Below, piece after piece: positions 2,894 through 44,417 of a stretch of DNA of 64,000 bases. The stretch's first letter is position 1, and every line of letters begins with the position of its first letter. Source of the DNA: an uncultured Anaerolineaceae bacterium (lineage in GTDB: Bacteria > Chloroflexota > Anaerolineae > Anaerolineales > UBA4823); contig CAYXDC010000002.1 of the NCBI GenBank assembly GCA_964463505.1, positions 28,452 to 92,451 of the forward strand, written 5' to 3'. The notes beneath the pieces are model-generated. The model did no database searches. It was given only the letters and a program-made list of their open reading frames with translations, and had not been told where the DNA came from. The translations under genes were made by a program, and so were the position numbers.

Positions 2894-2921
2894 ATTATAA
2901 GGATTCAAAGGCTTGAGTCAA
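2894..2921 (-). promoter_or_regulatory. sigma70-type promoter for the yip1-ABC operon (TTGACT-N16-TATAAT)
   Basis: Plus-strand ATTATA at 2894-2899 and AGTCAA at 2916-2921, 76 nt upstream of the yip1 start. Confidence 0.6.
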
Positions 2922-2977: not shown

Positions 2978-3985
2978 TTAGATCTGACCGAGAAATAAAT
3001 CACGTCCTTTCACTAAAGCCGCCATTTTACTATCGGCTACCGTACGAGGCAGCATCCAAAAACCACAGTCGGGATGTACCCAACGGATACGCTCGGGTCC
3101 TAGTATCCGGTGACTCAGCTCGATGCGTCTGGCTACTAATTCAGGGGTTTCAATCTCGTTATCCTTAATATCGATCACACCCACCCCCATGGCGATATCA
3201 GGGCGTAGTTCCTTAAAAAGCTCCAACTCATCATAACCACGTCGAGCAAACTCCAATACCACGTGATCTACATTTAGATGGTTGAGGAACCCGAGCAGGT
3301 TGCGCCAAAGACCTTTTTGGATAGATTGCCCCCCATAGTTGCCAAAGCATAAATGCACAGCCTTTTCACCTTTTACAGACGAAAGAACATGGTTGATTGG
3401 TTCATGCGCCCAAGATGCGTCTTCAGGGTGCCCCGGAAGATTGGCTTCATCTACCTGCAAGATGCCAGTGTCAATGTCCGCCATCTGGCGGCGTATCACC
3501 TCGGCAATTGCCATAGCCAGCTCGCGTAGATCATGGTAATGCTCATCCACCAGGGTTTTGGCCAGCATATAAGGGGAGGTTACAGTAAATTTCAGCGGTT
3601 TGGGGGTCAGATTACCGACAAAGCGCCAGGCAGCTGGCAAGTTTAAGCTGCCTTCGCCAATCGGGCCGCGCACAACCCCGGCAGGTTGGCTGCGGAACGC
3701 CATGCCCGGACGATTCCGAAAGTCGTTTAATTCGGTGCGTGAAAGCTGGGTATTGACGTTTTCCATTGGCCGGATGAAATATTCGATCATTCCATTGGTT
3801 TCTGGATGGTTGGGGTCAAAACGGGAGAGTTCGCCGTCGCTGATCACATCCAGACCAGCTAATTCCTGAGTCTTAAGGACAACCAAGATAGCATCCCGCA
3901 AGTGTTGGGTAGTTGGGTACGCGCCTAACCAGGCGGGGATTGGGTAGCTGCCGACAACTGTGGTTTTCAGACTAGGTAAACTCAT
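2978..3985 (-). CDS. Single-barrel cobalamin-independent methionine synthase-like (MetE C-terminal/'core') Zn enzyme
   Basis: TTVVGSYP start, DVISDGE, QVDEA, Zn ligands HLCFG, VLEFA and HPDCG. ATG at 3985 follows SD AGAAAGGA. Confidence 0.85.
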   Translation of the reverse strand: MSLPSLKTTVVGSYPIPAWLGAYPTTQHLRDAILVVLKTQELAGLDVISDGELSRFDPNHPETNGMIEYFIRPMENVNTQLSRTELNDFRNRPGMAFRSQPAGVVRGPIGEGSLNLPAAWRFVGNLTPKPLKFTVTSPYMLAKTLVDEHYHDLRELAMAIAEVIRRQMADIDTGILQVDEANLPGHPEDASWAHEPINHVLSSVKGEKAVHLCFGNYGGQSIQKGLWRNLLGFLNHLNVDHVVLEFARRGYDELELFKELRPDIAMGVGVIDIKDNEIETPELVARRIELSHRILGPERIRWVHPDCGFWMLPRTVADSKMAALVKGRDLFLGQI

Positions 3986-4067
3986 GTGTGGTTCCTTTCT
4001 CATTCAAACGTAGACGATCATTTATTGATAAGGTAGACCTCGTCGCTGAAGCATTCCCGGTAAATGT

Positions 4068-4898
4068 TTAACTATGGCCTAAATAAGCCTGGATAATTCT
4101 TTCCAGGAATACTTCCTGATCCATTGCCCAGTAATGATTAGAGAAGATTTCTACCTCGTGAAAACCGTCGAATCCGGAATTTTCAATCCAGGTCCGGATC
4201 TGGCGCAGCGGGATACAGCCTTCACCCATCAGGCCGCGGTCATTAAGCAAGTCGGTGGTTGGTGATTTCCAGTCACAGATATGATAAGCGAAAATCCGCT
4301 GAGTATCCCCAGCGCGCTGGATCTCGACCTGTAAGTCGGGATCCCACCACAGATGATACACATCCACCACAACACCAAGGCTGGGGCTGTTGAATTGAGC
4401 ACATAACTCATTGGCCTGGCGCAGCGTATTGATTGCTGAGCGGGTGTCAGCATACATGGGGTGTAAGGCTTCAATACCCAGTCGAACGTCGCAGGCAGCT
4501 GCATGCGGTAGGATCGCGGCAATCCCTTCAACGATCTGCTGGCGAGATGTATGCAATGATTGGGATGGGTGGGCTCCAGGGACCAATACTAACAGGGGCG
4601 CACCCAGCTCGGCTGCTTGATCGATTGCTTTCCGGTTGTCATCGATGGCGCGTTGTTGTTGGGATATGTCAGTGGCAGGAAAGAAACCACCTCTGCAGAG
4701 CGAGATATCCTTTAATCCAGCGACGCGGATGTGGGTAGCAATCGCGCTCACAGAATGACCTTCTAAAGCCTGACGCCAGACGGTGATCGCACCGACAGAG
4801 CGCGCCGAAAGCTGCTCAATTGTTGTTTCAATCGGCCAGGGTTGGTGGGTGATGCTATGGATGCACAGGCGGGAGGTATCTCGGATCTGGGAAGGCAT
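4068..4898 (-). CDS. Sugar phosphate isomerase/epimerase-family TIM-barrel (xylose isomerase-like, AP endonuclease 2 fold)
   Basis: Metal motifs GIEALHP, VDVYH, YHICDW, GLMGEG and HEVEIF. The likely start is the ATG at 4898 after GGGAG; the ORF track extends to 5012. Confidence 0.85.
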   Translation of the reverse strand: MPSQIRDTSRLCIHSITHQPWPIETTIEQLSARSVGAITVWRQALEGHSVSAIATHIRVAGLKDISLCRGGFFPATDISQQQRAIDDNRKAIDQAAELGAPLLVLVPGAHPSQSLHTSRQQIVEGIAAILPHAAACDVRLGIEALHPMYADTRSAINTLRQANELCAQFNSPSLGVVVDVYHLWWDPDLQVEIQRAGDTQRIFAYHICDWKSPTTDLLNDRGLMGEGCIPLRQIRTWIENSGFDGFHEVEIFSNHYWAMDQEVFLERIIQAYLGHS

Positions 4899-4922
4899 GT
4901 AAACTGCTCCCTGACATTTAAC

Positions 4923-4995
4923 TTGACAAGCACTCTGTGGGTATGATACCATAGCAAAGACGACAATGGTAAACATTGTGCGATAATGGCGAACA
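4923..4995 (+). promoter_or_regulatory. Putative promoter (TTGACA-N18-TGnTACCAT) and candidate IclR operator palindromes in the divergent intergenic region
   Basis: TTGACA 4923-4928; TACCAT 4947-4952 with TG at 4944-4945; inverted repeat ACAATG-N5-CATTGT 4963-4979; TGTGCG-N7-CGAACA 4977-4995. Confidence 0.45.
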
Positions 4996-5041
4996 CGGTC
5001 GTTGCTGATCATCCATTTTAGTTACCTCATCACCACAGGGT

Positions 5042-5833
5042 TTGCCTTTGAAGACTCAACGCAAGGTTATCGGCTCTGTCCAGCGAGCGCTTGATATCTT
5101 GAATCTGTTTGAGGCTCAGGTCGTTGAGTTGGGGACCACGGAAATCGCGCGTGCCCTCAGCTTGCCGAAAAGCACCATCGCTGGCCTGGTGCATACCCTT
5201 GAGCTAAATGGTTACCTGAACCAAAATCCCGAGACTCGCAAATATTATCTGGGTTTCAAATTGGTCGAGCGCGCCGGTGTACTACTTGGTCAGTTTGATC
5301 TGCGTAAGATCGCCGCACCGGTATTGATGGCGCTGCGAGATGATACAAATGAGAGCGTAAACCTGGCGCTGCGCGATGGTAGCTATGTGGTTTATATTGA
5401 ACGCATGCATGGGATGAACATGCTAGGTATGCGCTCGGAAATTGGCAAGCGCGAGTTAGCGCATTCCACCGCATTAGGGAAATCAATGCTGGCTTTCTCG
5501 CCGGAACATATTCTAGATGACTTCCTAAAAACCCATCCTTTCGAACCGGTTACACCGCAGACGATTACCAGTCCTGCGGTGTTTCTTATTGAAATGAACC
5601 GCACCTGCCAGCGGGGCTTTGCAGTGGATGATCAGGAGAACGAGCTCGGTGGACGATGTGTCGCTGCGCCGATCTTTGATTATACCGGTCAAGTGGTTGC
5701 AGCAGTGAGTATTTCGGTGCCCATACAGCGCTTCCCAGATAGCCGTCTGGAATTATTAGGTGAGCGGGTAAAAGCAGCCGCGGCGGAGATTTCCCGCCGC
5801 TTGGGTGCTGCTCCGCTCCGTCGGTTGCCCTAG
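5042..5833 (+). CDS. IclR-family transcriptional regulator
   Basis: N-terminal 'SVQRALDILNLF...GTTEIARALSLPKSTIAGLVHTL' HTH; C-terminal 'HSTALGKSMLA' and 'GFAVDDQENELGGRCVAAPI'. Confidence 0.95.
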   Translation: MPLKTQRKVIGSVQRALDILNLFEAQVVELGTTEIARALSLPKSTIAGLVHTLELNGYLNQNPETRKYYLGFKLVERAGVLLGQFDLRKIAAPVLMALRDDTNESVNLALRDGSYVVYIERMHGMNMLGMRSEIGKRELAHSTALGKSMLAFSPEHILDDFLKTHPFEPVTPQTITSPAVFLIEMNRTCQRGFAVDDQENELGGRCVAAPIFDYTGQVVAAVSISVPIQRFPDSRLELLGERVKAAAAEISRRLGAAPLRRLP

Positions 5834-7387: not shown

Positions 7388-8524
7388 ATGATCCAAAGAC
7401 CTGAGCGCGCGGTATTGCGCCCAAAACTTGAGATAGCTTTTGAGTTCGCCCAGCAGCAGGTGCGCGAGCTGATCACCAACCACCCACAGGTTTACCCCAT
7501 GTATACGGAAGGTGGTCAATGGAAGATCGGCGGAGAGACCTGGACTAACTGGTGTGAGGGGTTTCTTCCGGGGATGATGTGGATCTTCCATCGCAGGACA
7601 GGTGATCCGGATTGGCTTGCTGCTGCTGAGCACTATTCACGCCACCTGGAGGAGCGCAAGCACGACCGCACTGTCCATGATCTCGGCTTCTTGTTTTGGT
7701 CCACCTACAAACGCTGGTTCGACTTGACCGGTGATCCGGCCATCAACGAGGTAGTTATTACGGCGGGTAAGACGATGGGATACAGGTTCAAGGAGAAAGG
7801 CCAGTATCTGCGCTCATTTGTAGCGGATGAATCCCTGTTCATCGATATTATGATGAATGTGGGGATTGTTTTTTATGCTGCCTTGCAAAGCGGCGACGCC
7901 GATCTTTTACGTAAGGCTCACCAACATACCCTCACTACCCGGCGTTATCTGGTGCGTGGGGATGGCAGCACATCCCATGAAGGTATTTTTGACCTGGAGA
8001 CAGGTGAATTTTTGCGCCAGACTACACATCAAGGGTGGCGCGGAGATTCATCCTGGGCGCGGGGCCAGTCGTGGGCATTGTATGGCTTTGGCACCTGCTA
8101 TTATCTGACTGGCGACCGGCGTTATCTGGCTACGGCACGCCAGTGCGCTGACTTTTATATCGAGCAAACCCGTTTTGATGCCGCAGCTCCCTTTGGACCC
8201 GGTGTGCCGCCCAATGATTGGTTTGCTCCAACCAGTCAGGTGGAAAGCTCAGCAGCGGCTATAGCCGCCAGCGGCTTGATGAACCTGGCTGCCATATTAC
8301 AGGACCCGTTGTATGCCAACCTCTACTTGAGCGTTGCCCTGACCATTCTGGATACACTGTGCAGCCCAGAATATTTGGGTAAATTTACCCCCGGCTGGGA
8401 GGGTATCCTCAAACATGGCTGTTACCATATTAACAAAGGACTGGGCATGGATGAAAGTGTCATGTGGGGCGAATACTTCTTTGTGGAAGCCTTGCATAAA
8501 GCCTTATCGTTGGAGAACTGGTAA
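7388..8524 (+). CDS. ugl: Unsaturated glucuronyl hydrolase, glycoside hydrolase family 88
   Basis: WCEGFLPG, HDLGF (catalytic Asp88-equivalent), FIDIMMNV (Asp149-equivalent), SWARGQSWALYGF, ESSAAAIAASG, WGEYFFVEAL. No signal peptide. Confidence 0.9.
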   Translation: MIQRPERAVLRPKLEIAFEFAQQQVRELITNHPQVYPMYTEGGQWKIGGETWTNWCEGFLPGMMWIFHRRTGDPDWLAAAEHYSRHLEERKHDRTVHDLGFLFWSTYKRWFDLTGDPAINEVVITAGKTMGYRFKEKGQYLRSFVADESLFIDIMMNVGIVFYAALQSGDADLLRKAHQHTLTTRRYLVRGDGSTSHEGIFDLETGEFLRQTTHQGWRGDSSWARGQSWALYGFGTCYYLTGDRRYLATARQCADFYIEQTRFDAAAPFGPGVPPNDWFAPTSQVESSAAAIAASGLMNLAAILQDPLYANLYLSVALTILDTLCSPEYLGKFTPGWEGILKHGCYHINKGLGMDESVMWGEYFFVEALHKALSLENW

Positions 8525-9304
8525 ATGAGCAGTCAAAGAGTCGCTATCGTGACCGGAAGCAGCCGTGGGATCGGCCGGGGAATTGCCCTGAGTCTGGCAG
8601 AGCGTGGCTGGGATATCATTATAAACTATCACAGCAATGCTGCTGCGGCTGAAGAAGTGCGCCTGGCGGTGCAGGGCTTGGGAACACATGCTTTGCTGGT
8701 GCAGGCTGATCTTGCTAACCTGGCAGACCTGAACCATATGGTGGATGCGACCCTGGAACGCTATGGACGGATTGACCTGCTGGTTAATAATGCCGGCGTG
8801 GGACCGCGCCAGCGTGTGGATTTACTCTCCACTACTGTCGAGAGCTACGACGAAGTTATGGCAACCAACCTGAGAGGCCCTTTCTTTCTTACCCAGCGCG
8901 TTGCCAATGAGATGATCGCTCAATTACAGGCCGGCAAGATCAGTACAGCCCACATTGTCAATATTGGCTCGATTAGCGCCTACACCAGCAGCCCATCGCG
9001 AGCTGAGTACTGCATCAGCAAGGCTGGCGTGGGTATGCTGACGATTGTATTCGCCGACCGCCTGGCAGAGTATGGGATTAACGTGTACGAAATCCGCCCG
9101 GGGATCATCGCCACCGACCTGACCAGCGTGGTCAAGGTGAAGTACGATCGCATGATCTTCGAGGAAGGCTTGACGCCAATCCGGCGTTGGGGCCAGCCGG
9201 AAGACGTGGCCAAAGCAGTGGTTGCAGTTGCCGAGGGCTTGCTGCCGTACTCCACCGGTGAAGTGATTAATGTGGATGGGGGTTTTCACCTCCATCGTTT
9301 GTAA
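8525..9304 (+). CDS. Short-chain dehydrogenase/reductase (PRK12745-like '3-ketoacyl-ACP reductase' subfamily)
   Basis: TGSSRGIG, VNNAG, S...YCISK catalytic motif, VYEIRPGIIATD, DGG terminus. ATG directly follows the GH88 stop codon. Confidence 0.9.
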   Translation: MSSQRVAIVTGSSRGIGRGIALSLAERGWDIIINYHSNAAAAEEVRLAVQGLGTHALLVQADLANLADLNHMVDATLERYGRIDLLVNNAGVGPRQRVDLLSTTVESYDEVMATNLRGPFFLTQRVANEMIAQLQAGKISTAHIVNIGSISAYTSSPSRAEYCISKAGVGMLTIVFADRLAEYGINVYEIRPGIIATDLTSVVKVKYDRMIFEEGLTPIRRWGQPEDVAKAVVAVAEGLLPYSTGEVINVDGGFHLHRL

Positions 9305-17137: not shown

Positions 17138-18160
17138 ATGAATGTGAAGGAAAGGTTCTTGAAAGCTCTGCATCTGGAGGCCGTTGATCGCCCACCTGTG
17201 GCTGCTGTGGCTACCGGGATTACCGTTCAGATGATGGAAAAGGTAGGGATTTATTGGCCTGAAGCGCACAGCGACCCCGACCTATTGGCAGGTCTGGCTG
17301 AATCGATCTGGGTGCATACCAATATCGAGTGCATGAAGCTACCCTTTGATATGGTGGTTGAGGTTGAGGCACTGGGTGCCCAAATCAATTACCGCACTCG
17401 AGATACTCTGCCCACTGAAGTTGGGCATTTATACAATCATCCCGATCAACTCACCATCCCCAAGAATTTCTTTGATCTAGGGCGTGTCCCTACTGTTCTC
17501 AAAGCGATTCATTCCCTGCGCAAACGCTACGATGAGGAAGCACCGATCGTCTCCTCGATTGTAGGTCCGTTCTCAATCGCCGGGAAACTGTTCGGATTTG
17601 AGAATTTCTTGATCTGGATCATAACTAACCCGGAATTGGTCCACCAGGCGATGGCTGCCTTGACCCCCCTGGCAATCGCCTATGCCAATGCGCAGATTGA
17701 GGCAGGGGCCGATGCTATCATTATTGGGGAGGCTTCTTGCACAGGCGACCTGATTTCTCCGTTTACCTACCGTGATTTAATCGCTCCCTATCATGGCCAG
17801 CTCTGTCCGGCGATCCAAGGCCCAACAATCATGCATATCTGTGGCAAGTCCACTCGCCATACACCTTTCCTGGCCGATATCGGCACCAACTGTTACAACT
17901 TCGACGAAGGGGTGGATATTCAGGTCGCTGTACATAATTTAAAAGGCAAGGTCGCCCTGGCTGGTTATGTGCCGACTGTAAAAGTACTGCTTAATGGAAC
18001 CCCTGAGGATGTATATCGGTCCACGATGGAATGCCTGGATAATGGAGTGGATATGGTGACCCCGGGTTGCGCCATGGCCCCCTATACACCACTTGAAAAT
18101 ATTGCTGCGATGACGCAGGCAGTTCGGGATTGGAAACCTAACCCAACCGCTGTAGGATAG
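17138..18160 (+). CDS. MtaA/CmuA-family methylcobamide:thiol methyltransferase-like protein (UroD superfamily)
   Basis: KERFLKAL...VDRPPV, YWPEAHSDP, EVEALG, GRVPTVLKAI, GPFSIAG, Zn motif MHICG...TPGCA. Confidence 0.85.
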   Translation: MNVKERFLKALHLEAVDRPPVAAVATGITVQMMEKVGIYWPEAHSDPDLLAGLAESIWVHTNIECMKLPFDMVVEVEALGAQINYRTRDTLPTEVGHLYNHPDQLTIPKNFFDLGRVPTVLKAIHSLRKRYDEEAPIVSSIVGPFSIAGKLFGFENFLIWIITNPELVHQAMAALTPLAIAYANAQIEAGADAIIIGEASCTGDLISPFTYRDLIAPYHGQLCPAIQGPTIMHICGKSTRHTPFLADIGTNCYNFDEGVDIQVAVHNLKGKVALAGYVPTVKVLLNGTPEDVYRSTMECLDNGVDMVTPGCAMAPYTPLENIAAMTQAVRDWKPNPTAVG

Positions 18161-18208
18161 GCGGGTTGGTTAATTCGAATAGATGAACGGACAAAAATAG
18201 AGGTATAT

Positions 18209-19345
18209 GTGAGCCGGATTGCGCGTGTGGAAGTTGGTCGCTATGATTATGTCTTTGCCGGGGCATTTAAATTCTTCAAACCCGGAAAAGATGGAGTGGT
18301 CCGCCGTCCAACCGTGTTTGTCCGCCTGACCGATGAGGCTGGCTTGCAGGGTTGGGGACAGGCTGTGCCAGTGCCCACCTGGACTTACGAGACGGTTGAG
18401 ACTGTGGAAAGCACCTTAACTAACTACCTGGCTGAGGCAGTGCTGGGCGCGGACCCAGATGACCTTTCCGAGGTCCACCGGCGCATGGACTATGCTATCC
18501 GTCCGGGGTTCTCAACCGGACAGCCGATCGCCAAAGCTGCCCTGGACCTGGCTTGCTACGATCTGGTTGGGAAGCGGGAAGGCGTTCCCGTCGCCAATCT
18601 CTTGGGTGGAGCCCGCCGCGATGCAATTCGCTTGAATTGGACTTTAAATGCTCTCACATTGGCGGAGGCTGAAATCCAATTGGAAAAAGCACGCATCGGC
18701 GGTTTTGGCCACTTCAACATCAAAGTTGGTCCACCACAAACACCGGAATATGACTTGGAGTTGGTGCGCCTTGTGCGTCGGGAATTCCCCGATACATTCC
18801 TGTGGGTGGATGCCAATACCGGCTATCGCCTGGAGACCGCTCTTGACATGCTGCCAAAATTTGCCGCAATGGGCGTTCAGGCAATTGAATCTCCCCTACC
18901 TCCTAACCAATTACGTGGCTATCAGGCACTAAAGAAAAATGGCGCGGTGCCCATCTATATGGATGAAGGTATTATTTCACCAGTAGAGACGGCCGAGTTC
19001 ATCGCTTTGGAGATGTTCGACGGAGTGACCTTGAAGCATGCGCGGTCGGGTGGCTTGTGGCAAGCTCAACAGATTATTCGCCTGGTTAAAGAGGCCGGGT
19101 TGCAATTGCTTGGCTCTGGCCTCACCGATCCGGATTTATCATTGGCAGCCGCGTTGCATTTGTATGCCTGGGCAGATATCGACCGTCCATGCGCTTTAAA
19201 TGGACCACAGTTTATTGGCGAGACCCTGGTAAAGGATGGCTACAGTATTCAAGGTGACTTGATCTTCCTTCCCACCGGGCCTGGTCTGGGGATTGAATTG
19301 GACGAGAAAGCCCATTCGGTCCTGCGCGTTGCAGCGGAAGCCTAA
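18209..19345 (+). CDS. Enolase-superfamily enzyme, muconate cycloisomerase (MLE) subgroup
   Basis: GWGQA, AALDLACYDLVGK, FNIKVG, VDAN, IESP, MDEG, LKHARSGG, PTGPGLG. Confidence 0.88.
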   Translation: MSRIARVEVGRYDYVFAGAFKFFKPGKDGVVRRPTVFVRLTDEAGLQGWGQAVPVPTWTYETVETVESTLTNYLAEAVLGADPDDLSEVHRRMDYAIRPGFSTGQPIAKAALDLACYDLVGKREGVPVANLLGGARRDAIRLNWTLNALTLAEAEIQLEKARIGGFGHFNIKVGPPQTPEYDLELVRLVRREFPDTFLWVDANTGYRLETALDMLPKFAAMGVQAIESPLPPNQLRGYQALKKNGAVPIYMDEGIISPVETAEFIALEMFDGVTLKHARSGGLWQAQQIIRLVKEAGLQLLGSGLTDPDLSLAAALHLYAWADIDRPCALNGPQFIGETLVKDGYSIQGDLIFLPTGPGLGIELDEKAHSVLRVAAEA

Positions 19346-19354
19346 AGGTTAACC

Positions 19355-20821
19355 ATGCAGAATCTGACCGTAGCGCTGAAGCACACATCCCGAACACTCC
19401 ATAACTTGCAGACGCGCATTCCTTTTCGCTACGGATTTGCTACTCTGACAGCTTTTCCCCATCTTGTTCTTGAAGCGACATTTGAAATCAATGGCACACT
19501 CCAGAAAGGCTGGTCTGCTGAGAGCCTGATCCCGAAATGGTTCACTAAGGACCCTGACACAGAGTTTTCGGACGATCTAGTGGATATGCTTGCGGTAATC
19601 CGCCAGGCGGGTGTTTTCGCTGTCCGGATTGGGACTGCACCGAGCCTGTTTACCTGGTGGTGGGATCTTTACCATATCCAAAAGCGATGGGGAGAGAGAC
19701 ACGGCTATCCGGCGTTGCTCTGGAACCTGGGCGTCAGCTTATTGGAGAGAGCTGCGATCGATGCCTATTGTAGGGCTGGTAGGATCACCTTTGCCGCTGG
19801 GTTGCGTGAAAATGCCTATGGCATCCAACTCGGTCAGGTACACCCCATTTTGGAGAATAGCCAGCCAGTCGATTGGCTGCCAGCCCTGCCGCTCGAGCAG
19901 ATCAGTGTACGCCATACTGTCGGCCTGGCGGATTGTCTCACAGAGAGTGAAATCCCCCAAGCAGAGCGTAACCAGGATGATCTACCGCGGTCTTTGGAAG
20001 CTGCGATAGCTGCTTATCAGTTGCGTTATTTTAAAATCAAACTCTCCGGTGATGGATCGACAGACTTACACCGTTTAGCACAAATTGCTGCACTCTTACA
20101 CGGCATTGGGTTGGCAGACTACCAGTTCACTCTGGATGGCAATGAGCAGTTCCATCAGTCGACTGATTTTCTGGATTTTTGGCAGTCTTTACTAGATGCC
20201 ACCACTCTGGCAGACTTTCTCACGCATCTACTGTATGTCGAACAGCCTCTCCATCGCTCAGTTGCTCTGGATGAGCGTACCCGCCAGGCGTTTCTAAATT
20301 GGGAGGCGCGGCCACCCATCATCATCGATGAATCAGATAGCGACCTCACAAGCCTGGTACGGGCGATTGAATGTGGTTATGTGGGGACCAGCCATAAGAA
20401 TTGCAAGGGGGTTTTCAAAGGCATCGCCAATGCTTGCTTATTGGAAGCTCTGCGCCGGCAGAATCCTGACCAGCTCTTTCTGTTGAGTGGTGAGGACCTA
20501 GTCAATGTCGGACCGCTGGCTTTGCAACAAGATTTGGCAGTAATGGCATCATTGGGTATTGTGCACGTAGAACGCAACGGTCAACATTATTTCAATGGCT
20601 TGAGTGGTTTTCCTGCTTCGGCTCAGGCGGCGGTCCTGGCTTGCCACCCCGACTTATATCGAGAGCACCCGGCTGGTTATCCCGTCTTAAGGATTGAAGA
20701 TGGGGCTATCTCCACTCAGAGTATTAATACTGCCCCATTTGGATTATGCGTAGAGCTTGACACTGCTGAATTTACACCGGAAGAGGAGTGGGAATTTACC
20801 TCACTCGGTCTCCCAATATAG
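19355..20821 (+). CDS. Divergent enolase-superfamily (mandelate racemase/MLE-like) protein
   Basis: TRIPFRYG N-terminus, YFKIKL, LDGNEQ, YVEQP, IIDES, SHKNCKG, HVERNG. Confidence 0.75.
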   Translation: MQNLTVALKHTSRTLHNLQTRIPFRYGFATLTAFPHLVLEATFEINGTLQKGWSAESLIPKWFTKDPDTEFSDDLVDMLAVIRQAGVFAVRIGTAPSLFTWWWDLYHIQKRWGERHGYPALLWNLGVSLLERAAIDAYCRAGRITFAAGLRENAYGIQLGQVHPILENSQPVDWLPALPLEQISVRHTVGLADCLTESEIPQAERNQDDLPRSLEAAIAAYQLRYFKIKLSGDGSTDLHRLAQIAALLHGIGLADYQFTLDGNEQFHQSTDFLDFWQSLLDATTLADFLTHLLYVEQPLHRSVALDERTRQAFLNWEARPPIIIDESDSDLTSLVRAIECGYVGTSHKNCKGVFKGIANACLLEALRRQNPDQLFLLSGEDLVNVGPLALQQDLAVMASLGIVHVERNGQHYFNGLSGFPASAQAAVLACHPDLYREHPAGYPVLRIEDGAISTQSINTAPFGLCVELDTAEFTPEEEWEFTSLGLPI

Positions 20822-20839
20822 AAGAAAAGGATTAAACCC

Positions 20840-21667
20840 ATGGAAAAACCTGTAAATGAAACTTCTCAATTGAAAAAGAGTGAATTTATGGAAAATCTCA
20901 AGAACCGTTTGATGCCTTTCATTGGTATCTTTGGATTCCTGCTGATCTGGGAACTGGCAGTAATTGTGTTCGATATAAAAAGTTATTTGCTCCCCAGGCC
21001 GACCATGATTGTGCAAGAAGTCATTGTTCGGTTTGATTCTTTGATGAGTCATGGCGCGACAACGGCGTATGAAACCTTGCTTGGTTATGCCCTGGCGATC
21101 GCAATCGCTGTTCCTCTGGCAATAGGGATTACCTCATCGGCGGCTTTTGACCGCTTTATTATGCCGATCCTGCTGTTTTTCCAGGTGGTTCCAAAAATTG
21201 CAATTGCGCCCTTGTTCCTGATCTGGTTCGGTTTTGGCACGATGCCAAAAGTGATGGTTGCTTTCTTGATCTCGTTCTTTCCTATTGTGATTGATACTGC
21301 TGTAGGATTGCGCTCAATCTCTTCGGAGATGATTGACCTGGCGCGTTCCATGGGCGCTACCAAATCACAAATATTCCTACGCTTCCGCTTACCCACCAGC
21401 CTACCCTATCTATTCAGTGGTTTGAAGGTTGCCGCTACACTGGCAGTGGTAGGTGCAGTGGTGGGTGAATTCGTCGGAGCAGACCGTGGTCTGGGGTATT
21501 TATTACTCGTATCTAATTCAAATCTGAATACCGCCTTGACTTTTGCCACCATCGTTGTCCTTACGGCTCAAGGATTGTTTCTATTCTATGTAATTGAGAT
21601 CCTGGAACGTTTCATGATCCCATGGCACGTTTCTCGCCGGACGACCCCTGAACATGCGACGATGTAA
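20840..21667 (+). CDS. ABC transporter permease, NitT/TauT/SsuC family
   Basis: FQVVPKIAIAPLFLIWFGFG, EAA-like 'IDLARSMGATKSQIFLRFRLPTSLPYLFSGLK', GEFVGADRGLG. Confidence 0.92.
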   Translation: MEKPVNETSQLKKSEFMENLKNRLMPFIGIFGFLLIWELAVIVFDIKSYLLPRPTMIVQEVIVRFDSLMSHGATTAYETLLGYALAIAIAVPLAIGITSSAAFDRFIMPILLFFQVVPKIAIAPLFLIWFGFGTMPKVMVAFLISFFPIVIDTAVGLRSISSEMIDLARSMGATKSQIFLRFRLPTSLPYLFSGLKVAATLAVVGAVVGEFVGADRGLGYLLLVSNSNLNTALTFATIVVLTAQGLFLFYVIEILERFMIPWHVSRRTTPEHATM

Positions 21668-21776
21668 GGCAAAATTTGGTGGAAGGAGGTGATTTTGCGA
21701 CAATCGAATTACATAGTTGTCTGTCTTAGGTCAAAACCATATACAAAATACTGATTACCTTGAGGAGACTCTGCAC

Positions 21777-22835
21777 ATGAAGAAAGTTAATGTCCTTCGT
21801 TTGTTCGCGGCGCTCATGATCGTGGCGCTGATCGCGGGCTGCGCTCCGCAGCCTGCTGCTACCCCAGTAGCAACTGAGGAACCAGCGGAAGAGTTGGTAA
21901 AAGTCGACTTTCGCCTGAATTGGACTCTTTATGGCGAACATGCCCCGTTCTTCCTGGGTGTTGATAAAGGCTTTTACTTAGAAGAGGGCTTGGATGTAAC
22001 AATCTTGGAAGGCAGTGGTTCAGCCACAGTTGTGAAGCTGATTGGCAATGGCACCAATGTGATTGGTTATGCTGACTCAGCAACCATGCTGCGCGGCATC
22101 AGCGCCGGCGTGCCGGTGAAGGCGGTGGCAGTCACCTTCCAGTCTAGTCCGATGGCCTTCATCTATCGCCAGGATGCTGCCCGACCGACCACCATCGAAG
22201 AAGTAAAAGGTACTAAGATCGCCATCACCGCAGGTGATGCCAGTCTGGCGATCCTGGAAGCCTGTCTGGGTCGCAATAACATGACTATGGAAGACGTTCA
22301 ATTAATCCAGGTCTCGAACCCGGCTTCTAAAGAAACCGCAGTGCTAGAAGGCCAGACGGATGCGTTCCTCGGATATTTTGTTGATCAACCGATGCGTATG
22401 GAGAAGGTTACCGGCGTAGATATGGGTTGGTCTAAACTGGTTGATCTTTGCGATGTAAATACCCTGAGCAGCGCCATCATCGCCAATAACTTCTATGCCG
22501 AACAGAACCCGGAAGTAATTGCCAAGTTCGTGCGCGCTTCTCAACGCGCCTGGCAATACACCTTGGATCACCCCGAAGAAGCGGCTGAAATCTTCTCCCA
22601 GCACGCTGAGGCTTTTGATGTTCCTCTGTCGTTGGCCGAAATCGAAGGCTCTTTGACCTTGATGCACACTGCCAACAGTGAAGGGAAGCCGATTGGTTGG
22701 TCTGCTCCGGAAGATTGGACTGCCACCCAGGACGTTCTGGCTCAATACGCTGGATTCAAGCCTGAAGAGGATATCAACGTTTTCTTCACCAATGAGTTCA
22801 TCTCCGAACCTCCCTATTTGCCTCCAGCGGAATAA
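21777..22835 (+). CDS. ABC substrate-binding lipoprotein, NMT1/THI5-like (NitT/TauT family)
   Basis: Lipobox LIAGC after a basic + hydrophobic signal; FRLNWTLYGEHAPFFLGVDKGFYLEEGLDV; EGSGS. ATG 21777 after GAGGAG. Confidence 0.9.
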   Translation: MKKVNVLRLFAALMIVALIAGCAPQPAATPVATEEPAEELVKVDFRLNWTLYGEHAPFFLGVDKGFYLEEGLDVTILEGSGSATVVKLIGNGTNVIGYADSATMLRGISAGVPVKAVAVTFQSSPMAFIYRQDAARPTTIEEVKGTKIAITAGDASLAILEACLGRNNMTMEDVQLIQVSNPASKETAVLEGQTDAFLGYFVDQPMRMEKVTGVDMGWSKLVDLCDVNTLSSAIIANNFYAEQNPEVIAKFVRASQRAWQYTLDHPEEAAEIFSQHAEAFDVPLSLAEIEGSLTLMHTANSEGKPIGWSAPEDWTATQDVLAQYAGFKPEEDINVFFTNEFISEPPYLPPAE

Positions 22836-22854
22836 GGATTTCATAACCTGTTAC

Positions 22855-22891
22855 GGTTCTCCCCATAGGCCGAAATCCTGTGGGGAGAACC
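22855..22891 (+). promoter_or_regulatory. 15-bp stem-loop between the SBP and ATPase genes (mRNA stability/attenuation element)
   Basis: GGTTCTCCCCATAGG (22855-22869) pairs with CCTGTGGGGAGAACC (22877-22891) with one G-U pair. No U-tract follows. Confidence 0.7.
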
Positions 22892-22909
22892 CTCCAAGAG
22901 AAGATCAAG

Positions 22910-23686
22910 ATGACTGAACCCTATATTCGCTTGCAAAATGTCGAGAAAGTCTACCAGACGAAAGACAACCCAACCCTAGCGGTAGAGAATGCTGACTTTG
23001 ACATTCAAAAATCTCAGTTCATAGCTATTGTGGGTCCCAGCGGCTGTGGCAAGACCACCATTCTTAAAATGTTGGCTGGGTTGGTTCCCTATACTTCCGG
23101 GTTGATTACGATCGACGGAAATAAAGTTAACCGGCCACAGACGGATCTCGGTATTATCTTCCAGGATTCAGTTCTGCTGGACTGGCGAGATGTGCTCTCG
23201 AATGTTATGTTGCAGATTGAAATCCGCGGGCTGGATCAAAACATTTATGCACCGCGGGCACATGAACTGCTGAAAGCGGTTGGGCTGGATGGATTTGAAA
23301 CCAAGAAACCCTATGAGCTTTCGGGTGGAATGAGACAACGCGTAGCAATCTGCCGAGCGCTGGTCCATGATCCGCCGCTTCTATTGATGGATGAGCCATT
23401 CGGTGCGTTGGATGCCCTAACCCGTGAGCAGATTTCGATGGATATTCAGCACCTGTGGATGGAAAAGCGCAAAACGGCCTTACTGATCACGCATAGTATC
23501 CCCGAGGCGGTCCTCCTGGCTGATCGGGTGATCGTCATGAGTCCGCACCCCGGACGTATTGTTGAAATCATTGATATTGATCTACCGCGCCCACGCCGCC
23601 TGGACCAATTACCAGAACGGTTTAATGACTACACCGGTCACATTCGGAAGATTTTCCAGGCTTCAGGTGTTTTAGCGCTGGATTAA
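22910..23686 (+). CDS. ABC transporter ATP-binding protein, NitT/TauT family
   Basis: GPSGCGKT, LSGGMRQR, LLMDEPFGALDALTRE, ITHSIPEAVLLADRV. Confidence 0.93.
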   Translation: MTEPYIRLQNVEKVYQTKDNPTLAVENADFDIQKSQFIAIVGPSGCGKTTILKMLAGLVPYTSGLITIDGNKVNRPQTDLGIIFQDSVLLDWRDVLSNVMLQIEIRGLDQNIYAPRAHELLKAVGLDGFETKKPYELSGGMRQRVAICRALVHDPPLLLMDEPFGALDALTREQISMDIQHLWMEKRKTALLITHSIPEAVLLADRVIVMSPHPGRIVEIIDIDLPRPRRLDQLPERFNDYTGHIRKIFQASGVLALD

Positions 23687-23705
23687 GTACATAATTGAGG
23701 GAAGT

Positions 23706-24050
23706 ATGGCGAACTATTTGGTCGAGCAGATGGAGGACATCGGAACCATCCGCTGTCCCTGTGGTTTTACGCGGCGGGCGTTTGTAAATACGGAAAATGA
23801 TATAGCCACCCTGCATCTGCTGGATGTCGATGAAGACGCCCGCGTGCATTTCCACGAAACCCTGACCGAGATATATCTGATACTGGAGGGCGAAGGCATG
23901 CTGGAGTTGGACGGTGAGCAGGTCCCCGTAAAGCCAATGACCGCAGTGATGATCAAGCCCGGTTGCCGCCATCGTGCAGTTGGCAAGCTGCGAGTTGCTT
24001 TGGTGGCAATTCCGGCATTTAACCCCGCAGATGAGTGGTTTGACGAGTAA
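23706..24050 (+). CDS. Cupin-domain protein with an N-terminal CPCG motif
   Basis: Cupin motifs HFHETLTEIYLILEGEG and IKPGCRH; RCPCGFTRRAF at the N-terminus. Confidence 0.85.
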   Translation: MANYLVEQMEDIGTIRCPCGFTRRAFVNTENDIATLHLLDVDEDARVHFHETLTEIYLILEGEGMLELDGEQVPVKPMTAVMIKPGCRHRAVGKLRVALVAIPAFNPADEWFDE

Positions 24051-25272
24051 GCAGGCTGCGCAAAGATTAGATGTGCCGGCAACACTGCCCAAACTGGCAG
24101 CTACGCGGCGTTGGTACCATGTAGCAGGAGCGTGGCTGGGCATTGGCACTTCGCCAGGGGCGTTGCTCCTGGGCGCTGGTCTGGCAGCTCGCTATGGCGG
24201 TCCAGTGCCGCTGATTTCGATTCTGCTGAGCGCGCTGTTCATGTTTATCTTGTTGTGGTTCCAGGGTTCATTGGGTCTGGCACGCCCTTTGGGAGAAGGA
24301 TGCAATCTCAACCAAATCACCCCGCGTTATTTTGGAGTTGGCACGCAGCGAATGGTAGGTGCAGTAATTGCTCTGGGGATGGTCGGGTGGCTAGGTTTTA
24401 ATATTGGTCTGGGTGGTGCAGCACTGGGCGCCTTGTTGCGCTTGCCGGATGCGGCTGGGGCATTACTCTTGGGCTTGCCGATTGTCGCATTTTCCTTACG
24501 CGGGTTGCATAGTTGGAATCGCCTGGCAAGCCTGACCACACTGGCAGTTCTGGCTTTGGTGGGTATCATTGTTTCGCTACTGGCTGCGCGGACCATGCCG
24601 GTAACGTTTACCCTGCCGACCCCAGTTGGGTTGGTGACGGATGTTGCGGTTTTTGTAGGCTATATATCGGTATTCACGGTCCGCGCCCCAGATTTCACGG
24701 TTGGTTTACCCTCTCGACGGGATTTATTAGCAGTTGAAGGCTTGTTGATTATCCCAATTTTGCTCATAGCACTGGCGGGAGTCGGCTTGCAGCAAGGGAC
24801 CGGCTCAGCCGACCTGGTGGGAATTCTTGCCGAACCAGGCGGCCTGGCAATTGGCAATCTTCTGGTAGCGATCTCTATCATTGCGCCTACTTTTACCGCT
24901 TTATATTCTGGAGCACCTGCTTTGCAGGCGGCATTCCCAATGCAAGAACGACTGGCAATGCTGATCGTTACCAGCATCGGATTGACTCTGGCAATCCTGC
25001 GTTTTGATCTCAAATTACTGCCTTGGGTGACGGTACTGGCTGCCATGCTGCCCCCCTTGGTTGTACCTCTGGCAGTTGAATCAACCCGCCGCCGGCGGGG
25101 TAATCCCGATCGTTTGATCCCTTTATGGGTCTGGGCGCCGGGTGCATTGTTCTCAATGTTGTTATCCTTGATGCATAATCCCCTCGCCCCTTTGGTGGGG
25201 TTTTTAGTTACTGCCCTGGCAACGGCTAGCTGGTATTTTTTCTCCAGAAGGCGGTTGGAACGCGCCACCTGA
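24031..25272 (+). CDS. Purine/cytosine permease-like (NCS1/APC fold) transporter
   Basis: About 12 hydrophobic segments; 'WLGIGTSPGALLLG', 'GMVGWLGFN', 'APDFT', 'ALYSGA' resemble CodB-type permeases. Start uncertain (ATG 24031 or TTG 24040). Confidence 0.65.
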   Translation: MSGLTSKQAAQRLDVPATLPKLAATRRWYHVAGAWLGIGTSPGALLLGAGLAARYGGPVPLISILLSALFMFILLWFQGSLGLARPLGEGCNLNQITPRYFGVGTQRMVGAVIALGMVGWLGFNIGLGGAALGALLRLPDAAGALLLGLPIVAFSLRGLHSWNRLASLTTLAVLALVGIIVSLLAARTMPVTFTLPTPVGLVTDVAVFVGYISVFTVRAPDFTVGLPSRRDLLAVEGLLIIPILLIALAGVGLQQGTGSADLVGILAEPGGLAIGNLLVAISIIAPTFTALYSGAPALQAAFPMQERLAMLIVTSIGLTLAILRFDLKLLPWVTVLAAMLPPLVVPLAVESTRRRRGNPDRLIPLWVWAPGALFSMLLSLMHNPLAPLVGFLVTALATASWYFFSRRRLERAT

Positions 25273-25293
25273 TCTGCTAGATTAGAAAAGGAT

Positions 25294-26337
25294 ATGGTAC
25301 TTCCCATGAAAATTGATCAATGGCAAACCTTGCAACGCTGCGCACGTATGGAAGACCCTGGTGCGATCCCAGTGGCGCTGATCGTCGACTCCCCCTGGAT
25401 ACCGGGCTATTTGGGCATTTCGACCCTTGATTACCTGGGCAACCCGGAAATTTGGTTGCAAGCAAACCTGGAAGTGGAACAGCGTTTTCCAGATGTGATT
25501 TTCATGCCCGGTTTTTGGGCTGAAATGGGGATGGCAGCGGAGCCAAGTGGTTTTGGCTGCCGGATGAGTTTCTATGATGACCGCACGCCCCTGGTCCATC
25601 CGTTGCTCGATTCATTAGAGGATGTAGATCAGTTGCACCAGCCTGATCCAACCAGCGATGGGCTAATGCCATTCCTGCTAAACAAGATGCGAAAATTTGA
25701 GCCGCGTATACAGGATGCCGGACATGTCGTGAAAATTGTGGCCGCCCGTGGTCCGCTCGCAGTGGCCTCGCACCTATTGGGGATGACCAACTTCTTGTTG
25801 GGTGTTAAATTGGATCCAGCCAATACCCACCGCCTGTTACGGATTGCCACCCAGACGGTACGTGACTGGTTAGAAGCCCAAGCGAATGCTCTTACTGCCG
25901 CTGAAGGCGTAATGCTCCTGGATGATGTAGTAGGCTTCCTAAGCGAGAAGGACTATCTGGAATTTGCCCATCCTTATTTGAAAGAAATCCTGGATGCGTT
26001 TCCAGGTGCAGTAAAATTTTTTCATAATGATATGGATACAACTGTATCGTTCTCCCATCTGGCAGACCTTGGCATTCATATATTTAATTTCACTCACCTG
26101 CGCAGCCTGGATCGAGTAAGGCAATTGGTCGGGCCGCGGGTCTGTTTGATGGGGAATGTCCCCCCCTTGGATGTGTTGGCGCGTGGCACCCCGCAAGATG
26201 TGTTGCAAGCTGGGCACACCTGCCTGAAACTACACCCGGATCGGCGTGGTTTGATTCTCTCAGCCGGAGGTGGGGTTTCACCAGGTGTCCCGGGTGAGAA
26301 TATCCTGGCCCTATTGGATGCAGTCAGCCAGAGATAA
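25294..26337 (+). CDS. Uroporphyrinogen decarboxylase/MtaA-superfamily protein lacking the Zn-Cys ligands
   Basis: MAAEPSGFGC, ARGPLAVAS, LLDDVVG, FAHPYLKEI, CLMGNVPP, GTPQDV. FFHND and SAGGG stand where HxC and GC are expected. Confidence 0.82.
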   Translation: MVLPMKIDQWQTLQRCARMEDPGAIPVALIVDSPWIPGYLGISTLDYLGNPEIWLQANLEVEQRFPDVIFMPGFWAEMGMAAEPSGFGCRMSFYDDRTPLVHPLLDSLEDVDQLHQPDPTSDGLMPFLLNKMRKFEPRIQDAGHVVKIVAARGPLAVASHLLGMTNFLLGVKLDPANTHRLLRIATQTVRDWLEAQANALTAAEGVMLLDDVVGFLSEKDYLEFAHPYLKEILDAFPGAVKFFHNDMDTTVSFSHLADLGIHIFNFTHLRSLDRVRQLVGPRVCLMGNVPPLDVLARGTPQDVLQAGHTCLKLHPDRRGLILSAGGGVSPGVPGENILALLDAVSQR

Positions 26338-26350
26338 GGAGATAGCTGGG

Positions 26351-27517: not shown

Positions 27518-27546
27518 ACTGTACGCAGTTTTAGGGAGGATTCATC

Positions 27547-28626
27547 TTGTCCACACAAAAAATTGATGGAATGCGCTACGCACCCAAAGGTAAACCTAAT
27601 CCGGTCTGCCAGAAGGGTGAGTTTCGGGTTGCGGCGATTGGCCTGGATCATGGGCATATATTTGGGATGTGCAATGGGTTGTTAGAAGCCGGAGCTGAAT
27701 TAGCCTGGGTCTATGATCCGGACGCCAAAAAAGTGGCTGATTTTTGTAAACGCTATCCAGATACTCAACCGGCTGCTTCCGCCCAAGCCATCCTGGATGA
27801 TCCTCAGATCCATTTGATCGCTTCCGCCTCAATCCCGGTCCAGCGCTGCTCGTTAGGTTTGCGCGCCATGGAGCACGGCAAAGATTTCTTTGCCGATAAG
27901 CCGCCCCTGATCACCCGGGAGCAATTAGCCCAGGCAAGTGCAAAAGTAGCTGAAACCGGACGTAAGTACGCTGCCTATTATTCAGAACGACTGCACGTGG
28001 AATGTGCGGTTATGGCGGGTGATCTGATCCAGTCCGGAGCAATCGGTCGAGTCTTGCAGGTTGTAAACCTGGCTCCCCATCGACTGAATGCTCCCGAGCG
28101 CCCTGACTGGTTTTTCAAGAAAGCCAGTTATGGTGGGATCCTGATTGACCTGGGTAGCCACCAAATTGAACAATTCCTCTATTATTCTGGCGCTAAAGAT
28201 GCCCACGTGCTGCATAGCAAGGTTGCCAATTACCATAATCCGACTCAGCCAGATTTTGAAGATTTTGGGGATGCAACCTTGATCGCCGATAATGGTGCAA
28301 CCCACTACCTGCGTGTGGACTGGTTCACACCGGAAGGCCTGGGGGTGTGGGGGGACGGTCGTGTCTTTATCATGGGAACTGATGGCACTATTGAGCTGCG
28401 TAAATATATCGATATTGGGCGAGATGGCGAGGGTGATCATCTCTATCTGGTCAACCAAGCAGGTCTGCAGCATATGGCGCTTCATGGACAGGTGGGTTTC
28501 CCGTTCTTCGGTCAGCTCATTCTGGACTGCCTTAATCGCACTGAAAAGGCCATGACACAGGCGCATACTTTCAAAGTGATGGAATTAGCCATTCAAGCTC
28601 AAGAAATGGCTGATAAGATCGCCTGA
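27547..28626 (+). CDS. Gfo/Idh/MocA-family oxidoreductase
   Basis: AAIGLDHGHI, FFADKPP, YSERL, YGGILIDLGSHQ, YLRVDWFTP. Confidence 0.9.
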   Translation: MSTQKIDGMRYAPKGKPNPVCQKGEFRVAAIGLDHGHIFGMCNGLLEAGAELAWVYDPDAKKVADFCKRYPDTQPAASAQAILDDPQIHLIASASIPVQRCSLGLRAMEHGKDFFADKPPLITREQLAQASAKVAETGRKYAAYYSERLHVECAVMAGDLIQSGAIGRVLQVVNLAPHRLNAPERPDWFFKKASYGGILIDLGSHQIEQFLYYSGAKDAHVLHSKVANYHNPTQPDFEDFGDATLIADNGATHYLRVDWFTPEGLGVWGDGRVFIMGTDGTIELRKYIDIGRDGEGDHLYLVNQAGLQHMALHGQVGFPFFGQLILDCLNRTEKAMTQAHTFKVMELAIQAQEMADKIA

Positions 28627-28647
28627 CATTGTGAAGGAGCACTCGCA

Positions 28648-30051: not shown

Positions 30052-30069
30052 GTTGAGGAGGAAAACGTT

Positions 30070-40982: not shown

Positions 40983-41177
40983 TGCAAGCAATCCTCATGT
41001 ACAATAAAGCTAATAATTTCCCAAATGAATAAGGTTCTCTACCAGAAAGCAGTATATCAGGGTGAATAGCATATTGAGAAACTGGCAGTTATTATATCTG
41101 GCTAAATGCCAGTTGCGTGCGCTGAGGAATCAGGCAATGCGAGTAGTTTGCACGATTGCCTGGGGAGGGGTTTGCCT

Positions 41178-42077: not shown

Positions 42078-42168
42078 TACTTGAATTGCCTCTTCGAGTT
42101 TGCTATACTCATTTGGGGCAAAACAAAGCACATGGTTTATAGGCGTGGTTGCCACGATGGAGGGCAGC

Positions 42169-42612: not shown

Positions 42613-42618
42613 TTGGCC

Positions 42619-43782: not shown

Positions 43783-43953
43783 GTTTCCTCCTGCTGATGG
43801 GCGGTTGTATTGGTTTGATTCTAGTGGGAAGAGATCGAGTTGGCAAGACGAATAGACCCGCATTAAGAAAATAAGTGCGAAGCGGGATCATAGAGCCTTA
43901 CAAATGAAGTGGCGGTATAATCGGATTATCTACTAGAAAATGGGAAGGTCTCC

Positions 43954-44415: not shown

Positions 44416-44417
44416 TT

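Follow-up and report, generated by a model that had tools for sequence, protein, structure and literature searches.

Four families of folate-independent 'core' methionine synthases have been described, and the methyl donor of one of them, MesD, is still unknown. Homocysteine-using synthases of this type (MetE and MesA-D) are recognized by three residues, Ser-433, Glu-484 (Gln in MesA and MesC) and Asp-599 (PMC7857596); the roles of the MetE Zn and homocysteine residues have been described (PMC7857596, PMC539065), and a Zn site made up of two Cys, one His and one Glu is a hallmark of thiol-alkylating enzymes (PMC539065). Here we analyze a stretch of 64,000 nucleotides from a contig of an uncultured Anaerolineaceae bacterium (CAYXDC010000002.1; the whole stretch is called the window), which encodes a single-barrel MetE-like Zn enzyme close to its left end. 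Our results point to a predicted Zn alkyltransferase that binds homocysteine, belongs to sugar-acid catabolic islands as an integral but modular component, and acts together with an enzyme of the enolase superfamily. Tentatively, we favor a cytoplasmic Zn-dependent homocysteine S-methyl(alkyl)transferase from an undescribed single-barrel MetE family, which would be catabolic within a sugar-acid island rather than serve housekeeping methionine synthesis, and which would take its methyl group from a pathway intermediate readied by the enolase-like partner.

2978..3985, minus strand: single-barrel MetE-like Zn enzyme, 335 residues (start codon and ribosome-binding site, residue mapping to E. coli MetE, structural model, fold matches, clade)

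The open reading frame (ORF) extends from 2978 to 4003 on the minus strand. We took the ATG at 3985 as the likely true start, because GAAAGGAA is located just 5' of it and because the resulting 335 residues are the modal length among homologues. PF01717 (Meth_synt_2) covers residues 27-331 with 73.3 bits (cut-off 21), and the N-terminal barrel PF08267 is detected neither in the protein nor, above cut-off, anywhere in the genome. In our alignment His-211, Cys-213, Glu-245 and Cys-307 (335-residue numbering) correspond to the Zn ligands His-641, Cys-643, Glu-665 and Cys-726 of E. coli MetE, and Ser-13, Glu-52 and Asp-179 to the homocysteine ligands Ser-433, Glu-484 and Asp-599. An AlphaFold2 model built on 36 family sequences shows one (βα)8 barrel (mean pLDDT 90.1). 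In Foldseek it most closely matches the MesD structure 3RPD (TM 0.76-0.78) and the C-terminal MetE barrels of T. maritima, plants and fungi, with much weaker matches to UroD, MtaA-type and BHMT/MetH barrels. Alignment, PF01717, the missing PF08267 and the model thus bear out the label given in the first-pass annotation, a 'core' MetE-like Zn enzyme with all four Zn ligands and no N-terminal barrel.

The references of the residue alignment were E. coli MetE (L085), two MesD genes located beside DUF1852 (L086, L088), a haloarchaeal split-MetE catalytic subunit (L087) and XecA of Xanthobacter Py2 (L090). Of the 28 other aligned clade rows, which come from at least 10 phyla, 26 share all seven functional residues with the window protein; one further locus row is N-terminally truncated. 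The residues are found in Chloroflexota, Verrucomicrobiota, Planctomycetota, Acidobacteriota, Poribacteria, Latescibacterota, Gemmatimonadota, Hydrogenedentota, Spirochaetota, Actinomycetota and one Woeseiaceae genome. The two exceptions (P0127 and P0144) are sublineages nested in the clade that keep the Zn ligands and have altered homocysteine triads (G/D/N and Y/E/E), which suggests a switch to another substrate. Across 36 family sequences the Zn ligands are invariant. Specific to the family are an invariant insertion (..F-D-x-N-H-P-E-T-N-G-M..) and an R-R-G-Y motif following the Glu ligand. The window protein contains a Met-containing loop, GMI, equivalent to the DMV motif of MetE; no Trp aligns with the pterin-stacking Trp of MetE, and we find no clear equivalent of the pterin-binding Glu.

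The Ser/Glu/Asp triad argues, at the level of sequence, for homocysteine or a very similar amino acid as the thiol substrate rather than another thiol such as coenzyme M (CoM), as the family keeps these residues while XecA has Asn and Arg at the first two positions. XecA (Xanthobacter autotrophicus Py2, Xaut_4865) and EtnE are otherwise like the window protein in being single MetE-type barrels with H-x-C, E and C Zn ligands and a catabolic use. At the three substrate positions XecA contains N/R/D, and it branches outside the clade described below (EtnE was not in the comparison). An identity as epoxyalkane:CoM transferase was rejected on these residues and on the tree, and the initial idea of an enzyme repurposed for another thiol in that manner is not supported.

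XecA is also the MetE-fold precedent, with CoM, for non-methyl thioether chemistry, in which homocysteine (or cysteine) would be added to a sugar-derived epoxide or enone, or, in reverse, released from an S-substituted homocysteine such as S-ribosylhomocysteine. The island does encode enzymes that make or consume activated alkenes (OYE, an FAD desaturase-like protein and GH88), and a sister group of the family contains a sugar-kinase fusion. We nevertheless regard such chemistry as improbable: XecA is located outside the clade and its substrate residues are changed, no follow-up gene set of the CoM-pathway type is present, and we know of no abundant natural S-glycosyl or S-alkyl homocysteine that could explain carriage by hundreds of species. 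It is very doubtful that the barrel performs no thiol chemistry at all and acts as a Zn-dependent isomerase, hydratase, decarboxylase or sugar-acid binding protein. The purely carbohydrate-related context would fit, and the related URO-D superfamily contains cofactor-free decarboxylases, with UroD a distant structural match of our model; set against this are the Zn site of two Cys, His and Glu, typical of thiol-alkylating enzymes (PMC539065), and the seven MetE functional residues kept across phyla (with the exceptions P0127 and P0144).

Relation to described MetE-like families

The best NCBIfam model for the window protein is NF003317, at 179.8 bits and well below its cut-off of 406, and other methionine-synthase models score lower still: 98.9 bits (cut-off 392) for the MesD model NF006589, 85.9 bits (cut-off 258) for NF002119, our proxy model for MesA, and 56 bits (cut-off 930) for the two-barrel MetE model TIGR01371. 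The MesA criterion is confined to methanogens with at least ~40% identity to METE_METTM, and the carriers here are bacterial. In a maximum-likelihood tree, which took in MesD, XecA, split MetE and E. coli MetE, the family is recovered as one clade (UFBoot/SH-aLRT 100/100), its stem measuring ~2 substitutions per site. Placed outside are MesD, XecA, the Halobellus split-MetE subunit, the C-terminal barrel of E. coli MetE, the second single-barrel paralogue of this genome and a sister group with a PfkB kinase fusion. Identities to the window protein show a matching gap: full-length relatives among 1.84 billion cluster representatives fall at 46-66% (at least 304 bits) and then at 36-39% (at most 227 bits), and those in 301 Chloroflexota genomes at 55% or more and then at 41% or less. 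From its sequences the clade is probably a further family beside the four 'core' synthase families, MesA, MesB and MesC not having been compared directly.

The closest described system is MesD/MesX (Acinetobacter ACIAD3523; Shewanella PDB 3RPD; PMC7857596). MesD is, like the window protein, a single barrel with the same Zn and S/E/D ligands, and it is the best structural match; like the MetE-like family, it is mostly found in genomes that also have MetH, and a partner gene of unknown function is tightly linked to it. It differs in that the window protein is only ~24-28% identical, groups in a separate clade, has an enolase-superfamily partner and sits in a sugar-acid island. For membership in MesD we looked for at least ~55% identity to ACIAD3523 and an adjacent MesX (DUF1852, PF08908); the identity is 27-28%, and MesX was not found in the genome, which is 88.6% complete, with control genomes also giving no hit. 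On these results and the separate clade, MesD membership was rejected.

The C-terminal barrel of MetE (EC 2.1.1.14; E. coli b3829; T. maritima PDB 1XDJ/1XPG) has its fold, Zn site and homocysteine site in common with the window protein, which in contrast lacks the N-terminal barrel and the aligned pterin Trp and has its own insertion and R-R-G-Y motif. With 335 residues, no PF08267 and the TIGR01371 score given above, a canonical two-barrel MetE was rejected. The catalytic subunit of archaeal split MetE (Halobellus limi DV707_RS14760), to which NF003317 belongs, has the same length and functional residues. It is only ~29% identical, however, and the window protein scores below the cut-off, has no adjacent subunit with an N-terminal barrel and occupies a separate branch. 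A split MetE was therefore dismissed as well: the neighbors are a TIM-barrel isomerase and a Yip1 operon, no PF08267 gene scores above cut-off, and the protein is not sister to the Halobellus subunit. BHMT and MmuM (PF02574) provide a functional analogy only, in that the Zn-thiolate of homocysteine directly attacks the methyl group of a catabolic or salvage substrate, without folate or corrinoid. They belong to a different family, are distant structural matches (1LT8, TM ~0.49) and use onium compounds, not sugar derivatives, as donors. MesC was compared by description, with no MesC sequence aligned: the Cys at the position concerned is kept in the window protein, and the carriers are bacterial.

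Relatives are encoded in at least 594 species-representative genomes, spread over 10 or more phyla, and the best 80 are 58-74% identical. Carriers belong to glycan-degrading phyla (Chloroflexota, Verrucomicrobiota, Planctomycetota, Acidobacteriota, Poribacteria and others), and phyla are intermixed in the tree, which fits lateral spread of the family. It is present in 16 of 301 Chloroflexota genomes and in none of the other sampled genomes of the window's own order (the tallies include one unpublished genome, G043, which has only a 39-41% relative and on which no claim rests). The cluster look-up returned only members derived from metagenome-assembled genomes. Annotations everywhere call family members 'methionine synthase' or '5-methyltetrahydropteroyltriglutamate-homocysteine methyltransferase', names that are probably inaccurate in detail. 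The literature searched contained no characterization of the clade, and searches for a characterized sugar-linked MetE-like enzyme or for demethylation of 4-O-methylglucuronate returned nothing relevant.

Two more distant proteins also link a MetE-like barrel with sugar genes. The second single-barrel paralogue of the window's genome (G000 contig 69, L001:1047-2105, minus strand; 352 residues, 30% identical, all seven residues) is surrounded by genes for a SIS-domain sugar isomerase, an SDR and a UlaG-like metal hydrolase. In the metagenomic protein P0240 (745 residues), a member of the sister subfamily, a single-barrel MetE-like domain that is 35% identical to the window protein and keeps the seven residues is fused to a PfkB carbohydrate kinase.

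Enolase-superfamily partner and proposed chemistry

The most consistent partner of the family is a long, divergent enolase-superfamily protein, of which the window encodes two:

19355..20821, plus strand: long divergent enolase-superfamily protein, 488 residues (family ~485 residues), the partner seen most consistently with the MetE-like family; shares 53% identity with the protein whose gene is coupled to the MetE-like gene in L010

28648..30051, plus strand: second long divergent enolase-superfamily protein, 467 residues, in the second operon

In 7 of 80 loci (Chloroflexota and Planctomycetota) the enolase-like gene is the immediate same-strand neighbor of the MetE-like gene, on either side and with gaps of -3 to +50 nucleotides, and in other genomes the pair is often translationally coupled. 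Among the 301 Chloroflexota genomes, 16 carry the MetE-like and 15 the enolase-like family, and 13 carry both, with the two genes usually within 15 kb (related genomes are not independent; both families occur together in about four or five genera). Of the 285 genomes that lack the MetE-like family, just 2 have the enolase-like protein, and in one of them it adjoins the same ABC importer and a MetE-like paralogue that is more distant. The enolase-like protein gives almost no Pfam signal, and a PDB sequence search returned no match. Its AlphaFold2 model (pLDDT 94.2) reveals the enolase-superfamily fold, and Foldseek matches MR/MLE enzymes at 12-16% identity, with no close solved relative. The catalytic motifs are invariant, namely a KxK pair, D/E/D-type metal ligands (D, E, D/E) and a further Lys pair. 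The family is very large (thousands of homologues), and its members bear only hypothetical or generic enolase-superfamily names. The similar length of a long OYE encoded in the window led to a comparison with the long enolase-like protein; the two are not related.

We propose that the enolase-like partner would act on an O-methylated sugar acid (e.g. a 2-O-methyl-aldonate), abstract its proton α to the carboxylate and eliminate the neighboring hydroxyl, turning an inert methyl ether into the methyl enol ether of a 2-keto-3-deoxy acid. Zn in the MetE-like enzyme would activate the homocysteine thiol, which may then attack the methyl group on this pathway intermediate to yield methionine and the demethylated intermediate. 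Passing the enol-ether methyl to homocysteine would be possible because the enolate of a 2-keto-3-deoxy acid is a good leaving group. The released 2-keto-3-deoxy acid could enter the PfkB kinase and KDPG-aldolase steps encoded in the island. The enol-ether step is speculative. A new two-enzyme O-demethylation system of exactly this kind, with dehydration of the sugar acid by the partner and direct transfer of the methyl group by the Zn enzyme, appears rather unlikely to us. If true, methylated glycans (or RNA riboses) would supply bacteria of many phyla with methyl groups for methionine, with no need for folate, cobalamin or oxygen.

In favor of the catabolic homocysteine methyltransferase we count the kept residues, the fold, the distinct clade, the presence of MetH, the linkage to the enolase-like partner, the sugar-acid context, PfkB and KDPG aldolase in the window, the lack of a detected riboswitch and an MtaA/CmuA-family enzyme in the island. 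Several points weigh against it. We know of no enzymatic precedent for the enol-ether step, and methyl enol ethers could instead be simply hydrated, for example by the GH88-like enzyme. The S/E/D residues could in principle hold another amino-acid-like ligand. Of 30 carriers outside Chloroflexota, only 16 yielded the enolase-like partner, and gene context is variable: Acidobacteriota pair the MetE-like gene with a PD40 β-propeller instead of the enolase-like gene. Orthologues of GH88 and OYE occur in five and four Chloroflexota genomes, respectively, each co-occurring with the family in only two. The closed genome G099 also counts on this side, as discussed below. The linkage of enolase-like and MetE-like proteins amid sugar-acid genes provides a concrete protein pair and a short list of candidate donors. 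Methyl transfer from such a donor, if borne out, would define a new route between carbohydrate breakdown and sulfur/one-carbon metabolism and improve predictions of B12 dependence for environmental bacteria.

Methionine synthesis and corrinoid background

The window's genome encodes a MetH of 1188 residues, so the MetE-like family is not needed for methionine there. Full-length MetH is present in four of five complete carrier genomes, and the fifth has parts resembling a split MetH. The genus g72 is without the MetH activation domain and contains adjacent gene pairs that look like split MetE (PF01717 260-270 bits), the family member scoring 71-78 bits. The closed genome G099 yielded neither a MetH activation domain nor a B12-binding cap domain, and no second PF01717 gene (the search there did not extend to PF08267). 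The MetE-like protein could be the main methionine synthase of this organism, which also has three genes for PF02574-type (BHMT/YitJ-type) homocysteine methyltransferases.

These observations bear on the main rival of our proposal, a serious one that we hold to be somewhat unlikely: the protein would be a fifth 'core' methionine synthase, a biosynthetic, cobalamin-independent back-up for MetH, forming a two-component system in which the enolase-like protein makes or presents the methyl donor, as MesD needs MesX. The intact Zn and homocysteine residues fit this role, 3RPD is the closest solved structure, and usual co-existence with MetH and a tightly linked partner gene are traits of MesD as well (PMC7857596). 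G099, with neither MetH domain and no other PF01717 gene, would fit as well, and the MetE-like/enolase-like pair is often found amid unrelated genes, like a self-contained module. Against a back-up synthase, no riboswitch was detected beside the gene: an Rfam search (cobalamin, SAM and other) found none in the window or in 14 related loci, no positive control having been run on these genomes. The nearby regulators belong to the IclR and LacI families, and elsewhere the gene resides inside GH88-SDR-OYE-...-Gfo operons. The patchy distribution in Chloroflexota (16 of 301 genomes, none of the other sampled genomes of the window's order) and the absence of the enolase-like partner from many carriers also speak against it, and G099 has its three other homocysteine S-methyltransferase-domain genes.

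The first-pass annotation had proposed a catabolic, non-methionine role. The catabolic setting holds up, given the IclR and LacI regulators, the lack of a detected riboswitch, the full MetH in the genome, and the GH88-SDR-OYE-...-Gfo operons or enolase-like coupling elsewhere. The non-methionine part is not supported, since the homocysteine residues are kept and XecA lies outside the clade; the product may well be methionine.

Two further genes of the island bear on a possible corrinoid-dependent route:

17138..18160, plus strand: MtaA/CmuA-family Zn methyltransferase homologue, first gene of the second operon (NF004889 342.4 bits, cut-off 244; TIGR01463 285.6 bits, cut-off 235.4)

25294..26337: second, weaker URO-D homologue, in the second operon

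The protein could be a methylcobamide:homocysteine methyltransferase of the MesA/MesB kind that completes a corrinoid-dependent demethylation begun by the MtaA/CmuA-family enzyme, which we judge quite improbable. Characterized core synthases use methylcobalamin in vitro (PMC7857596; PMC7005905), the island does contain the MtaA/CmuA-family protein above NCBIfam cut-offs and the second URO-D homologue, and CdhD genes of the corrinoid iron-sulfur protein (CoFeSP) type are present on contig 22. No corrinoid protein is encoded in the island, however, the sole DxHxxG in the window belonging to a 153-residue mutase-type subunit ~40 kb away, and no B12-binding family is among the 25 most frequent same-strand neighbor families (79 neighbors) of related loci. 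The five complete carriers gave no strong CdhD hit, G099 lacks the B12-binding cap domain, and the NF002119 proxy remains far below its cut-off. The comparison with MesB is likewise one by description, resting on the CdhD-type genes of the window's genome and their lack of a strong counterpart in the five complete carriers, with no MesB sequence aligned. We rank three readings, namely the corrinoid-dependent MesA/B-like role, thioether chemistry other than methyl transfer, and chemistry without a thiol, below both the catabolic methyltransferase we favor and the MesD/MesX-like back-up synthase.

The MtaA/CmuA-family homologue, the island's second enzyme of a methyl-transfer type, passes the NCBIfam cut-offs for methylcobalamin:CoM methyltransferases and is the first gene product of a sugar-type operon, with no corrinoid protein nearby. 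The adjacent CdhD-family genes on contig 22 (G000, ~40183-44856; 441 and 357 residues) seem to encode both subunits of a Wood-Ljungdahl CoFeSP.

Gene neighborhood in the window and in related loci

The MetE-like gene is the second gene of a two-gene unit and is divergent from an operon for sugar-acid breakdown. The features of this region and of the second operon are as follows:

4068..4898, minus strand: xylose-isomerase-like TIM barrel (AP_endonuc_2, PF01261, 132.7 bits), first gene of the unit; syntenic in L005

4899..5041, no strand: divergent control region separating the TIM-barrel/MetE-like unit from the IclR-led operon, with promoter-like sites on both strands

5042..5833, plus strand: IclR-family regulator, head of the divergent sugar-acid operon (IclR_C 162 bits, HTH_IclR 53.5 bits); syntenic in L005

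7388..9304, plus strand: GH88-like hydrolase (7388-8524) and SDR (8525-9304); orthologues directly 5' of the MetE-like gene in Caldilineae-type operons (L052, L054/L096, L058, L061, L071) and next to it in L060

11090..12556, plus strand: long OYE-family flavoprotein, 488 residues (Oxidored_FMN 78.5 bits); orthologue immediately 5' of the MetE-like gene in five related loci, gaps -61 to +60 nucleotides

27547..28626, plus strand: Gfo/Idh/MocA oxidoreductase; 43%-identical orthologue directly follows the MetE-like gene in the Caldilineae-type operon

The TIM-barrel gene likely starts at the ATG at 4898 (Met-39 of the longest ORF, 4068-5012), and the nearest solved relatives of its product in a PDB sequence search are the uncharacterized 'sugar isomerase' 3QC0/3JU2 (E 6e-74) and IolI. 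It lies on the same strand as the MetE-like gene, 82 nucleotides away and with no convincing terminator in between; pairing with this orthologue recurs in only 1 of 80 related loci (L005). The control region contains TTACCA-18-TATCAT at 4972-4943 on the minus and TTGACA-18-TACCAT at 4923-4952 on the plus strand, both consensus matches only. The IclR-led operon encodes an FAD flavoprotein, the GH88-like hydrolase, the SDR, a PfkB kinase, a KDPG aldolase, the long OYE, a CoA-transferase, a crotonase, an FAH-family enzyme and a Zn-ADH. The second operon (17138-31077) comprises the MtaA/CmuA-family homologue, an MR/MLE enzyme, the long enolase-like protein, an SsuA/NMT1-type ABC importer with a binding protein encoded at 21717-22835, the second URO-D homologue, two Gfo/Idh/MocA oxidoreductases, the second long enolase-like protein and a LacI regulator. 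Between the MetE-like stop codon and the Yip1/ABC operon we located a near-consensus promoter-like site (TTGACT-16-TATAAT, 2894-2921, minus strand), and this strong site downstream of the stop codon suggests that the Yip1/ABC operon is a separate transcription unit.

We clustered the neighbors of related loci using all ORFs. The same-strand neighbors that recur across 80 related loci encode AP_endonuc_2 barrels, PD40 propellers, Gfo/Idh/MocA enzymes, sugar transporters and OYE, with GH2 also in the census; methionine, folate and corrinoid genes do not recur. Five Caldilineae/Anaerolineales loci have the one-strand order GH88-SDR-OYE-MetE-like(-Gfo), and the window contains orthologues of all these genes at 43-66% identity. 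In a Planctomycetaceae locus (L060), GH88 and SDR genes adjoin the MetE-like/enolase-like pair. The link to GH88 and OYE is lineage-specific, which rules them out as universal partners.

Other neighbors are confined to certain lineages or single loci. A gene for a PD40/TolB-like β-propeller (~335-365 residues) is translationally coupled downstream of the MetE-like gene, within a few nucleotides, in L067 (9008-10021) and 15 other loci, mostly from Acidobacteriota; the protein has similarity to TolB propellers only, an uninformative match. Several Bryobacterales loci have, upstream of the MetE-like gene and divergent from it, a gene for an FG-GAP/aldos-2-ulose-dehydratase-like propeller. In an Anaerolineae chromosome (L026:10495-11358, plus strand) the gene right after the MetE-like/enolase-like pair belongs to the uricase family. 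In a single Hydrogenedentota locus, a CE15 glucuronoyl-esterase-like hydrolase (L047:7776-8852, minus strand; PF22244, 43.7 bits) is convergent to the MetE-like gene; the natural substrates of the CE15 esterase family are esters of 4-O-methylglucuronic acid.

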